A stretch of DNA of 64,000 bases from positions 1,426,001-1,490,000 of the forward strand of contig JAGIQG010000043.1 in NCBI GenBank assembly GCA_024679065.1. The letters run 5' to 3'. Below the pieces are notes generated by a model, which did not search any database, was not told the origin of the DNA, and saw only the letters and a list, made by a program, of their open reading frames with translations. This document shows positions 1,814 to 37,423 of this stretch, piece after piece; positions within the stretch are counted from its first letter, which is position 1, and the number at the start of each line of letters is the position of its first letter. Position numbers and translations under genes: made by a program. Origin of the DNA: Sphyrna mokarran. Taxonomy: Eukaryota.

Positions 1814-2113
1814 CTGGCTTACCCAAACCTTCCTTGATTCTGGATCCACATTCCGGAATCTTTCTACCAGGAGAAGATTATTCACTCATCTGCCACTTCC
1901 CCCTCACGCGCTGCAATGTGGAATTGTACAAAGATTTCAAGGTCAGAGTCTTGTCCTTGAATGATGCCAACTACACGGCCATCTTCAGGTTTAGTGCGAT
2001 TTCTTCTTCAAAAGGCCACAACACCTACACCTGCAAATATCAAAAATTCTACGAGAACAATATGACCTGGTCTTACTCACCGATCAGTGAACCGGTACTG
2101 TTCAGCGTGATGG
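1814..2113 (+). CDS. LRC-like receptor: C2-type Ig domain exon A
   Basis: Acceptor ttattctccag, donor ATGG|GTAAGG, 300 nt, phase 1-1. GLPKPSL..SLIC..ELYK..YTCKY..WSYSPISEPVLFSV matches the LILR/KIR/CHIR-type pattern (LPKP start, LYK instead of the C-strand Trp, SxxSxPV end). Confidence 0.88.
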
Positions 2114-2453
2114 GTAAGGCAAATTTACAGATAATCTGATTGCCAAAGCAACATTAAGAATTACTCCATGTAACCTCACAAAAGGCCATTCATCACTTTA
2201 TTCCTGTGTTGACCTCAAAGAACAAAACAGCACAGGAAATCGGCCCTTCAGCCCGATAAGCCCGCGCCGCCACATCGATGTTTCCACTTCTACCCATGAT
2301 CCTTGTCTATGTTTATAGATCTATGCATTGAAACCAAATTTGAGACAATTTAGGGAGAATTTGTTCTGCCACTCAGTGACAGTACTCTCCAATTAAGCTG
2401 AGGCATCAGACTCGTCATTCCTCTTGTCATTTTTTTTTCTATTTTTGCATACT

Positions 2454-3216
2454 CATAGAACATAGAACATAGAACAATACAGCACAGAACAGGCCCTTCG
2501 GCCTTCGATGTTGTGCCGACCAAAATAAAAGCAATGCCCCTCCAAACTAAACCATTCCCTTCTCTTCCATATACTTATCAACTAACCTCTTAAACGCCAA
2601 CAAACTTGGCGCATCTACAACAGCTGCAGGCAGGGCATTCCACTCCCTAATCACTCTTTGAGTAAAGAACCTACCTCTGATATCCGTCCTATAACTCATA
2701 CCCCTTTAATTTAAAGTTGTGTCCCCTCGTGCTAGCTTTTTCCATCCTAGGAAAAAGGCTATCACTGTCCACCCTATCCAAACCTCTAATTATCTTATAT
2801 GTTTCAATAAGATCCCCCCTTAGCCGCCTCCTTTCTAACGAAAACAACCTCAAATCCTTCAACCTCTCTTCATAGGACCTGCCCTCCATACCAGGCAACA
2901 TCCTAGTAAACCTCCTCTGTACCCTCTCCAATGCCTCCACATCTTTCTTATAATGTGGCGACCAGAACTGCACACAATACTACAAGTGCGGCCGCACTAG
3001 AGTTTTGTACAGCTGCAACATGATGCTGCGGCTCCTAAATTCAATCCCCCTACCAATAAAAGCTAAGACTCCATAAGCCCTCTTAACAACTTTATCCACT
3101 TGACTGCCTACTTTCAGGGATCTATTGACACATACACCAAGATCCTTCTGTTCCTCAACACTATTAAGAGCCCTACCATTAGCCCTATACTCTACACATT
3201 TATTGTTCCTGCCAAA
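2454..3216 (-). mobile_element. CR1 LINE subfamily A, 5'-truncated
   Basis: ORF2 C-terminus (VRPHL..QFWSPHYKKD..ERRRLRGDLIE) and a (CATAGAA)n tail. Confidence 0.9.
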
Positions 3217-5521
3217 ATATCCACTCTTTGACAATATTCCTATTGGATTTGCTTCCAGCATCATTTCAGACGAGGTGTTCCAACTGGCAATGCAAGCTGT
3301 GTTAAGAAGCAATGTTTCCAAATGAATCACCCATCTTATTTAATCAGCGTGAACCATAGAACCATTGAAAATTACAGCTCAGAAACAGGCGTCGTGGCCC
3401 TTCTTGTCTGTGCCGAACCATTTTTTGCCAAGTCCCACTGACGTGCACTTGAACCGGACCCTTCACACTCCTCTCATCCATGAACCCGTTCACGTTTTTC
3501 TGAAATGTTAAAAGTGACCCCGCATTTACTATTTATCCGACAGCTCATTCCACAGTCCCACCACTCTCTGCGTGAAGAAGCACCCCCTCCCCCAATATTC
3601 CCTTTAAACTTTTCTCCTTTCACTCAGTGGAAAAAGCCTGTTTGCATTCACTCTATCTATGCGCATCAAAACCTTATACACTTCTATCAAATCTCCCCTC
3701 ATTCTTCTACGCTCCAGGGAATAAAGTCCCAACCTATTCATTCTCTCTGTAACTCAGCTTCTCAACTCACAGTAACATCCTTGTGAACCTTCTCTGCACA
3801 CTTCCAATCTTATTAACATCCTTCCTGTAACTAGGTGACCAAAACTGTACACAATACTCTAAATTCAGCCTCACCAGTGCCTTCTATAACCGTACCATAA
3901 CACTCCAACTTTTAGAGTCGATGCTCCGATTTATAAAGGCCAATGTACCAAAAGCATTCTTTATGACGCTACCAACCTGTGAGTTCATTTTTAGAGAATT
4001 CTGTACCTATCCCTTTGTTCAACTGCACTCTTCAGAGTCCTACCATTTAGCCCCTGTATGTTCTACTTTGGTTTGCCCTATCAAAATGCAGTATCTGCGT
4101 TACCCTACGTACCCGTCTGTTTCCTGGCAATCGTATCACTTGTAGTGGAGCCCTCATTGCCGCCATTTTGAAAGGCTTGATTTAATGGGGTGACACCGTG
4201 ACACAGTGTCAGGGCCCCATTTTCTGTTCTCGATTAGGCACTGCCTGAGCGGAATCAGCACGCTCTCCCCGTTTTTCGCTTGTGCTTTCTCTGAGTTCTC
4301 TTGTTTGCATGTACAGTCCGAGAGATGTGCTGGTTAGATCCATTGGTCATGTTAAATATTCTCTCAAAGTAGCCAAATAGATACTACAGTGTGAGGATTA
4401 TGGGATTTTCACAAGAACTTTATTGCAGTGTTCATGTAAGTCTACTTGCCATAATAACTACTTTTTAGTTAACTTGATCCCTTCCCCACTTTTAGATGGA
4501 TTCTAAGTAGGGAAACGCTATCATTTTTCATATCTCAGTTCACTGTGACCGGGGAGCAAGACAGACAGAGAGAAAACATACTTATAAAGCAGGGGTATAT
4601 CTGTCAGCATAGGTGTAACAGGCAGTGCAATTTGCAAACCCACTATCAAAATTTGTATGGAATAGCTAATACTTTTGACAAGATGTCAACATTTTTTGTG
4701 ATCACTATTGAAGAGAAACTCAAACTGATATGTCATATAAACACATTGGCTACAGTAGTAGGATAGAGACTAGGAATACTACGGTAAGCAACTCACTCCT
4801 GAATCCACAAACACTATCGTTATCTACGAGACACAACTCAGGAATATGATGGAATACCACCCATTTGCCTGGATGGGTGCAGCTCCAACAACACTCAAGA
4901 AACATCCAGATAATAACAGACTGCTTGATTGACACCACATTCAGAAACATCCACATCTCCATCACTGAAGCACAGTAGTAGCTGTGTGCGCTATCTAAAG
5001 ATGCAATGCAGTAATTCAACAAAGATCCTTAGACAGCGCCTTCCAGCCATACAACAACTTTCATCAAGAAAAGCAAGGGACAGCTGATACTTTGGAACAC
5101 AAACAGGTGTAAGTCCCCCTCCAAGAACTAATCATCCTAACGTCGAAAGCTACAGCTCTTCCTTCGCAGTTGCAGTATAAATATCCTGGAATTACGTCCT
5201 TAAGGATGTAAGGAATTAAGACTGCAAATTTTAAGAAGGCAGTTCACTACGATCTTCTCAAGGGCAACTAAGAATGGAAAATAAACGATGCCCATGAATG
5301 CAAAATAACATTAGCTCATGGTCGTTGCACAGAAGGTGAACGATTGCAATTTCCAGAGAGTTTAGCCTTGCAATGCCGGCAGAGCTCTGAGCTCAATTCA
5401 AGGCAGGTCAATTTCAGATCAGGATTGCCTACTTATGCTTCAGGTCATGGTCCTCCCCTATCAAACCTTCCTCATGCTCACATAAGTGACTCATCTGTCC
5501 CTTGTGTTCTATCTGTTACGA

Positions 5522-5814
5522 ATGAACTTCCCATGTCCGCTCTCTCAACAGTGTTAGCCTCCAGTGTGCAAACAGTGGGGGAGCGATTTCACATTAACTG
5601 CACTACCAGTTACCCGAGTTACATATCCTGTTTGTACAAGAAGTGGACGTGCTATTGATACCTACAAAGTCTCAGACCCCTGAGGACCGTCATCTTCACC
5701 ATTCAAGAGCTCGTCCAATGGATGGTGGAGCCTACCGCTGCAGTGTTATGAAAGAGGTGTTAGGGAAAGAATGTGTGTTGCCCTATAGTAACTTCGTGAA
5801 GTTCAATGTCACCA
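5522..5814 (+). pseudogene. Decayed duplicate of Ig exon B (pseudo-exon)
   Basis: ELPMSALSTV..VGERFHINCTTSYPS / AIDTYKVSD / RTVIFTIQEL / DGGAYRC..SNFVKFNVT aligns with exon 12580-12876. It needs about three frameshifts, the acceptor AG is lost (ttacga) and the donor is weakened (GTGAAT). Confidence 0.85.
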
Positions 5815-36950: not shown

Positions 36951-37204
36951 AAAATCCCCTCTGAACTTGCTAAACCACAACCGCAAACATGTGAAGCTTA
37001 ACCTCTTGAATATCACCCGTTTCCTTCTATCCACTGCTGGTGGATGTCATTAATATGCCCACGCTCTGGAATTCCTGATTCTCTTCCTGAGATTTGGAGG
37101 ACGGACTGAGGCGAGTGGGCCGCTACTCATTTTTTTTTTATTTTTTTTGCACAGCTTACATGAGAATTCTCATCTCATATTCCAATTTATTTCTTTTTTT
37201 TCAG

Positions 37205-37296
37205 AATTTAATGGAACACCAAATTCATTCCCAAATCTTGTGTGTCTCGCTGCAATTGCCTTCCTTTGGATTCTCCTTATTCGGGGAATACAGTGA
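37205..37296 (+). CDS. LRC-like receptor: terminal exon EFNGTPNSFPNLVCLAAIAFLWILLIRGIQ* (short TM or GPI signal)
   Basis: Strong acceptor ttcttttttttcag, phase-1 entry compatible with exon C, a 15-aa hydrophobic run, then TGA. AATAAA signals at 37350-37355 and 37418-37423. Confidence 0.75.
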
Positions 37297-37349
37297 GAAA
37301 AGTTGTCCATGCACCTTTGAAGCTTGCTGGCTCCAATAATTCATTCTGG

Positions 37350-37423
37350 AATAAATTCAACTGCAAATCTACATTTTTTGTCTATGTCGTGCTGTTAATG
37401 TGTTTTGTTTTCACGTAAATAAA
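37350..37423 (+). terminator. Polyadenylation signals (2x AATAAA) of the LRC-like gene
   Basis: AATAAA 54 and 122 nt after the stop codon, with a GT-rich tract between them (~37383-37412). Confidence 0.5.

Follow-up and report, generated by a model that had tools for sequence, protein, structure and literature searches.

Organization of the locus

A stretch of 64,000 nucleotides of Sphyrna mokarran DNA (assembly GCA_024679065.1, contig JAGIQG010000043.1, positions 1,426,001 to 1,490,000 of the forward strand), referred to in its entirety as the window, carries a gene for a receptor with three immunoglobulin (Ig) domains and no cytoplasmic tail. An initial annotation of the same letters had described it as a gene of the leukocyte receptor complex (LRC) type, similar to LILR, KIR, CHIR and GPVI. 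The features of this gene, in window positions, are the following:

1814..2113, forward strand: exon of Ig domain D1 (LRC-type C2 domain that has Cys33 as an additional conserved cysteine), 300 nt, phase 1-1, AG/GT borders
5522..5814, forward strand: decayed D2-type Ig pseudo-exon, with the acceptor AG lost, an in-frame stop and a frameshift
12580..12876, forward strand: exon of Ig domain D2, 297 nt, phase 1-1, AG/GT borders
24631..24930, forward strand: exon of Ig domain D3, 300 nt, phase 1-1, AG/GT borders
37205..37296, forward strand: coding part of the terminal exon, with an N-G-T candidate omega site, a polar spacer, a hydrophobic stretch and a stop
37290..37298, forward strand: weak possible splice donor (ACA/GTGAGA, cut at the stroke), overlapping the stop codon
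37350..37415, forward strand: likely poly(A) site, AATAAA with a U/GU-rich stretch after it; a second AATAAA is at 37418

The three Ig exons stand where the initial annotation had placed them, with the proposed lengths, phases and starts (LPKP in D1 and D2, LPRA in D3). The replacement of the C-strand tryptophan by LYK in D1, LYQ in D2 and FYR in D3 is likewise confirmed, as are the S-P-x-S-x-x-V ends of the domains (SPISEPV, SPHSNIV and SPRSTAV, respectively). The inventory of three Ig exons was correct as far as it went and missed the decayed one, while the statement that each domain holds two canonical cysteines fails for D1, which has three (26, 33 and 73). The additional Cys33 (window 1912-1914, forward strand) is invariant in 17/17 aligned family sequences; it is perhaps unpaired and may link dimers or partners. 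The arrangement of one Ig domain per phase-1-1 exon, common to D1-D3, is a trait of the Ig superfamily (IgSF) at large and is weakly diagnostic for the LRC. An exon pattern derived from these same three exons occurs three times in the window and in none of 40 second-order Markov shuffles.

The terminal hydrophobic exon, also noted at the outset, is present, the coding part running from the acceptor at 37205 to a stop codon at 37294-37296, and its description can be amended to a tailless end resembling a signal for glycosylphosphatidylinositol (GPI) attachment. The joining of D1, D2, D3 and this exon yields one open frame of 328 amino acids across introns of 10.5-12.3 kb. The first AATAAA lies 54 nt 3' of the stop and precedes a stretch with 73% G+T; position 37423, formerly taken as the end of the gene, coincides with the second AATAAA, the signal at 37350 being the likelier one. 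The gap of N letters given earlier as 1086-1243 is found immediately after an AGAT repeat and extends to 1244. Judged from its sequence, the gene is real and intact-looking.

Support for a single gene

Of 2396 candidates, 12 proteins match a profile built from the three window domains; they come from 7 species, all of them sharks, and all are colinear with D1, D2, D3 and the terminal exon. Identity to the catshark domains reaches 70% for D1, 63% for D2 (to D2b) and 80% for D3, with 52% for the tail, and the catshark isoform X3 (P0006) has the identical three-domain build. Since the shark orthologues, which like the other relatives are automatic gene models, hold the same parts in the same order, the reading of exons 1814-37296 as one gene, proposed in the initial annotation, is supported. 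Catshark isoform X2 contains one additional D2-type domain, and it is to this domain that the decayed exon at 5522-5814 is most similar (E 2e-22 to catshark D2a vs 4e-17 to D2b); judging by this match, the decayed exon is the loss of an optional exon that the catshark includes in X2 and skips in X3.

The N-terminal signal peptide is present in the orthologues and would lie outside the window. In related models with an intact N-terminus a D1-type domain directly follows the leader, and therefore only the leader is expected upstream; the earlier suggestion of a leader beyond the window fits this, and further Ig domains there are unlikely. A search of positions 1-1813 returned a single leader candidate, covering 39-77 (E 1.3 with one matrix and 0.04 with another); no pyrimidine tract precedes it, and it was not accepted.

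One could argue that the exons are pseudogene remnants, or parts of separate neighbouring genes, given that one Ig exon at the locus has decayed, that the introns are long (10.5-12.3 kb) and that no leader was seen. Against this stand the four intact exons with canonical borders and domains 63-80% identical to the same-order, three-domain catshark isoform P0006; a search of the stretches that separate these exons revealed neither a second leader nor a second membrane exon. Such an explanation is barely credible.

The shark RefSeq models (P0001-P0012, P0021, P0025 and P0169-P0171) comprise orthologues and paralogues that share the D1-(D2)n-D3 build, under automatic and mutually conflicting names: IGSF1-like, A1BG-like, OSCAR-like, LILRA3, CEACAM5-like, KIR3DX1 and GPVI-like. 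That automatic names such as IGSF1-like mislead is stated in PMC6557307 (cited here and below from its accessible part). The window gene differs from the catshark models in its decayed optional D2 exon and in a tail that lacks the Arg retained in the catshark.

Family placement of the domains

According to PMC6557307, a protein belongs to the LRC-related receptor family if its C2 Ig domains match LRC proteins best among the IgSF families, and the window domains do so in sequence, profile and fold searches. In a sequence search of the PDB with single domains, PirB and LILR come first for D2 and D3, and CHIR-AB1, OSCAR and KIR come first for D1. With a family profile, named LRC receptors occupy 50 of the best 60 rows among 124 matched, headed by PirB, LILRB1 and LILRB2; the remainder of these 60 consists of two antibodies and eight others (FCRL5, titin three times, CEA, LRIG1, VEGFR2 and MuSK). 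One of the antibody rows is titled as carrying LILRB1 domains, and the second is presumably an antibody carrying LAIR1. CEA scores 34.6 bits in this search vs 118.7 for PirB. A profile made from five NxxR-bearing LRC proteins is the best for 78/81 shark domains, all three window domains included, and one made from six of 20 FCRL-like proteins is the best for 3/81. The Pfam matches fail to reach the curated cut-offs and concern only generic Ig families, with a weak HIDE1-type Ig match for D1, and the neighbours in the ESM Atlas are generic and non-specific.

Predicted folds agree with this picture. The model of the basking-shark orthologue P0007 (pLDDT 86) retrieves KIR3DL1, PirB and LILR at the top of a Foldseek search, and by VIA it matches CHIR-AB1 with Z 14.8 and an rmsd of 1.4 Å over 93 residues, followed at lower values by PECAM-1 (Z 13.2), FCRLA (11.9), CD22 (11.9) and CEACAM6 (10.8). 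For the model of the window D1 (pLDDT 87), the Foldseek top ten are all OSCAR, CHIR and LILR except LAIR1 at rank 10, which also belongs to the LRC; VIA gives PirB (Z 12.3), CHIR (12.2), LILRB4 (11.8) and PECAM-1 (11.3).

An IQ-TREE phylogeny was computed from 87 selected domains and 92 columns, a set without CEACAM and without curated KIR, CHIR, GPVI and OSCAR. It unites 18 shark domains in one clade (91.2/97) and places 32 LRC reference domains of five proteins in a separate one (92.4/94), with the shark domains outside it. PDB searches of individual references identify P0075 and P0158 as LRC-like and P0140 as FCRL5-like. Shark and LRC domains together stand apart from the 26 FCRL-like and the 11 PECAM/CD22 domains with a support of 89.5/84, in a tree whose references were drawn from the shark-profile matches and labelled by motif or PDB match.

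With moderate confidence, the domains can be regarded as LRC-related, on the side of PirB, LILR, CHIR, OSCAR and KIR rather than of FCRL, PECAM and CD22. The same moderate confidence applies to their predicted status as a shark-specific radiation, sister to the tetrapod-type LRC domains. The initial assignment to the LRC type stands by PDB, fold, profile and tree evidence, and its likening of the gene to LILR, KIR, CHIR or GPVI probably does not extend to orthology with any of them.

The competing view is that the domains lie on the FcR/FCRL/LITR side, or form an independent PECAM-like C2 lineage, with a generic likeness to the LRC. It can draw on FCRL5, the fifth row of the PDB profile search, on PECAM-1, which is near in fold Z, on the 3/81 domains that prefer the FCRL-like profile and on the non-specific ESM Atlas neighbours. 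It must contend with LRC receptors at the top of every PDB sequence and fold search, with the joining of shark and LRC domains in the tree (89.5/84) and with the similarity of shark Arg-type membrane segments to NxxR segments, and is very improbable. An identity as CEACAM or Siglec was rejected: D1 follows the leader in the orthologues, which leaves no N-terminal V-set domain, D1 itself is LRC-like, and the CEA score is low.

The nearest D1 relatives outside the family, P0146 and its neighbours, include a protein that combines LILR-like Ig domains with scavenger receptor cysteine-rich (SRCR) domains. The LRC marker genes TTYH1, LENG8, RPS9 and TSEN34 were not recognised in the window, where no search by name was made.

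Tail classes across the shark family

The 21 family records with a C-terminus, some of which are isoforms of one gene, fall into three classes. Eleven are tailless, with a stop after the hydrophobic stretch; in four, a segment with Arg or His is followed by a short tail; and six have a long tail with an immunoreceptor tyrosine-based inhibitory motif (ITIM, V/L-x-Y-x-x-L) and a second tyrosine motif. Named ITIM paralogues occur in white, horn, sevengill and saw sharks. The accessible part of PMC4536121 treats the NxxR motif and the LRC of Xenopus, and strict NxxR is the most conserved LRC element (PMC6557307). Compared with six NxxR membrane segments, the Arg-plus-tail segments of P0010, P0011 and P0169 reach z 3.2-5.2, above 88-89 of 89 controls. 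The Arg and an acidic end recur in the shark segments, the Arg forms being T-L-I-R, S-E-I-R, S-V-I-R and F-P-T-R.

The window protein falls into neither of the signalling types. Where an activating receptor has NxxR, at the start of the membrane segment, it has N-L-V-C, without Arg, and so does not qualify as activating; with no ITIM, a stop after the hydrophobic stretch and no ITIM-tail exon on the forward strand, it does not qualify as inhibitory either. At the level of the family, the six ITIM and three Arg-plus-tail records would make up a paired-receptor system. The paired-receptor family of elasmobranchs thus appears to be a full one, with a probable GPI-anchored decoy in addition. D1 of the tailless forms constitutes one clade (0.84), and their D3 domains fall in a clade (0.83) that includes those of the Arg-type P0010 and P0011.

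Records of different tail classes share the same longest contig size in the white shark (P0021, P0009 and P0010; 2,721,611) and in the basking shark (P0007, P0008, P0011, P0012, P0031 and P0169; 5,388,364). These shared sizes suggest a clustered paired family.

The C-terminus: GPI signal or membrane segment

In the window, the terminal exon has N-G-T at a distance of 27 residues from the end; a polar spacer comes next, then a hydrophobic run that starts at about omega+9, and finally the stop, with neither a cytoplasmic tail nor an Arg at the adaptor position. The omega-site spacing agrees with the rules quoted in bioRxiv 10.1101/838680, and a hand-written check finds the features expected of a GPI signal, namely a small omega residue, a small omega+2 residue, a polar spacer and a tailless hydrophobic C-terminus. 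An N-G-[A/T] triplet 25-27 residues from the end is present in the window and in 11/11 tailless records vs 0/10 tailed ones. Four tailless records have N-G-A, and therefore the sequon is not the conserved feature.

These observations favour, with moderate confidence, an LRC-related tailless receptor that is GPI-anchored, descends from a single Arg-type origin and serves as a decoy, trap or co-receptor. The gene would consist of the upstream leader and three LRC-type C2 Ig domains, followed by a signal for GPI attachment at the C-terminus, and would belong to an elasmobranch-specific D1-(D2)n-D3 radiation with ITIM and Arg-type members. Within it, the tailless lineage most likely arose once from an Arg-type ancestor, through a stop directly after the membrane segment and the gain of an N-G-[A/T] omega site. 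A comparable course is known from the GPI CEACAMs, which arose through stops in membrane exons (PMC2832619). Cleavage would take place after the Asn of N-G-T, followed by GPI linkage, and the protein may act as a non-signalling decoy, a sheddable trap or a raft co-receptor, directed at the class of ligands that its paired paralogues recognise. From the absence of a cytoplasmic tail it follows that classical LILR signalling is not expected. As for the ligand, an MHC class I-like molecule, collagen or matrix, Ig Fc or a microbial structure are guesses.

Several points weigh against this interpretation. On the side of family placement, PECAM-1 stands only 1-2 Z below the best LRC fold matches of P0007 and the window D1, the UFBoot value of 84 for the shark-LRC split is moderate, the tree references come from the shark-profile matches themselves, and a 797-domain tree with a single PECAM domain as its root left the backbone unresolved and was set aside for the family claim. 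Strict NxxR occurs in none of the shark records, and the tail of the window is itself dissimilar to NxxR segments (z -1.0, compared with 1.5 for the catshark tail), so that the NxxR link runs via relatives. The GPI rule was checked by hand; Thr at omega+2 is outside the commonest residues (G, A and S); and the 11/11 tailless records with N-G-[A/T] are automatic gene models and, being related, do not amount to 11 independent events. Transcription and splicing of the four exons are inferred from the genomic letters, and a defect upstream of the window, where the leader would lie, is possible. Finally, the candidate donor ACA/GTGAGA over the stop codon scores 0.95 vs 0.87 for the genuine donor of the C1 exon in the neighbouring gene described below, with an approximate matrix.

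This donor, weak as it is, ranks among the best 9% of 723 intronic GT sites and raises the question of an ordinary membrane exon that is spliced over the stop to small cytoplasmic exons, the tailless form being one isoform or an artefact of modelling. In P0009, P0169, P0010 and P0011 the protein indeed continues beyond the same G-I-E position and ends in a short tail. From the exon as far as the neighbouring gene, however, there is no convincing match to a paralogue or ITIM tail (best E 0.15, without exon borders), and the sole candidate exon to pass the scan, 42357-42533, resembles repeat DNA by eye. A poly(A) signal and a GU-rich element lie directly downstream, and the omega-like triplet occurs in tailless forms alone. 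Such splicing is unlikely, and GPI attachment is preferred.

A further alternative to GPI attachment is a tailless, uncleaved type I membrane protein, either inert or paired with an adaptor such as FcR-gamma that carries an immunoreceptor tyrosine-based activation motif (ITAM). The hydrophobic stretch is membrane-spanning in size (17-residue mean hydropathy 2.49), the catshark orthologue retains an Arg in R-L-C-L, and the acidic residue with which LRC activating segments typically end is retained in most relatives. In the window protein and in most of the tailless relatives, nevertheless, both the Arg and stop-transfer residues are missing, and FcR-gamma was not found in sharks in 2014, in old assemblies (accessible part of PMC4016189). 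An uncleaved protein is accordingly rated as decidedly unlikely, and the GPI-anchored form remains the preferred reading.

Comparison with known receptor systems

Mammalian LRC receptors (LILR/PIR, KIR, OSCAR, GPVI, NKp46, LAIR1 and FcaR) and the chicken CHIR share with the shark family tandem C2 domains of ~100 amino acids encoded by single phase-1-1 exons. They also have in common the C strand without Trp, the S-P-x-S end, the best sequence and fold matches, and the occurrence of ITIM and Arg-type members. Unlike them, the shark domains form their own clade and lack strict NxxR, and the member in the window is tailless with a GPI-like end. FCRL and teleost LITR-like receptors, which likewise have related C2 domains and paired families, score lower and fall on the other side of the tree. 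The closest parallel for the anchor is that of the GPI-anchored CEACAM5-8, in which a GPI signal was derived from a truncated membrane exon within a paired-receptor family; a further one is presumably CD16b. CEACAMs nonetheless belong to another Ig family, the window gene has no N-terminal V domain, and CEA scores fall far under those of the LRC, which makes this an analogy and not a homology. For the GPI CEACAMs, a role as sheddable traps has been proposed (PMC2832619), whereas the products of the human LRC are type I receptors or secreted proteins (LAIR2) and are not GPI-anchored (PMC6557307).

The shark family suggests a receptor system that goes back to the earliest jawed vertebrates. Wang, Belosevic and Stafford reportedly described one LRC-like gene in the elephant shark, a chimaera, in Immunogenetics in 2021, which would already put such a gene in cartilaginous fish. 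Automatic database models with LRC-like names are also already known. PMC4016189 (2014), in the same accessible part, reports no C2-only LRC homologues in sharks and dates LRC genes to bony fish, and PMC6557307 (2019) treats the age, origin and first function of the LRC as open, without mention of sharks. The accessible text of PMC10751288 contains no LRC term, and one of its supplements lacks LILR, OSCAR, IGSF1, A1BG, TTYH1 and PRARP. A search by titles and the beginnings of abstracts, with most subscription journals outside its coverage, returned neither a shark LRC family nor a GPI-anchored LRC member. The elasmobranch paired-receptor family is apparently undescribed, and the tailless, probably GPI-anchored form apparently new within it.

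It may tentatively be proposed, at somewhat less than even confidence, that elasmobranchs possess a complete LRC-type paired cluster, with ITIM, Arg-activating and GPI decoy members, as the sister of all tetrapod LRC receptors. If so, the LRC paired system would date to the gnathostome ancestor, and, within the reach of the searches, the window gene would be the first LRC member with a GPI anchor. The shark proteins could be tested against MHC (major histocompatibility complex) class I, immunoglobulin Fc and collagen, with a bearing on the ancestral ligand and on the control of natural killer (NK)-like cells. The GPI form, if true, would repeat the conversion of a CEACAM membrane exon into a GPI signal in an unrelated family.

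The neighbouring VJ-C1 receptor gene

Tail-to-tail with the LRC-type gene and about 12 kb from it, the reverse strand carries a complete gene of six exons, in which V and J are joined in the germline and are followed by a C1 domain and a transmembrane (TM) segment:

61008-49083, reverse strand: germline-joined VJ-C1-TM receptor gene, six exons, complete
61008-60966, reverse strand: leader
58447-58109, reverse strand: VJ exon, with an F-G-N-G-S motif within the exon
57930-57625, reverse strand: C1 exon
52470-52351, reverse strand: TM exon, uncharged
52216-52158 and 49127-49083, reverse strand: cytoplasmic exons, with T-L-Y-A-R-L, similar to an ITIM or to an immunoreceptor tyrosine-based switch motif (ITSM); 49127 is read from the acceptor

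A scan for recombination signal sequences gave seven matches, all weak (2-3 mismatches) and all away from the VJ exon. An identification as UrIg was rejected, UrIg being V-C1-C2-C3 (PDB 9dmx). Joined-VJ genes are listed in the accessible part of PMC11599192. Eight relatives of the VJ-C1-TM gene occur in four shark species, and four of them share one basking-shark contig size. We take the gene to be possibly PRARP/VJC1-like. In basking and white sharks the VJ-C1 records lie on contigs of other sizes than the LRC-type records, and for this reason the linkage of the two genes is not established as conserved. Their adjacency is possibly a relic of a linkage between a non-rearranging antigen-receptor precursor and NK-type receptors in a primordial immune complex.

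Interspersed repeats are abundant in the introns and flanks (9128-11474, 17343-18212, 56551-57405 and others), as is ordinary for sharks, and the broken reading frames found there look like what we take to be CR1/LINE reverse transcriptase.

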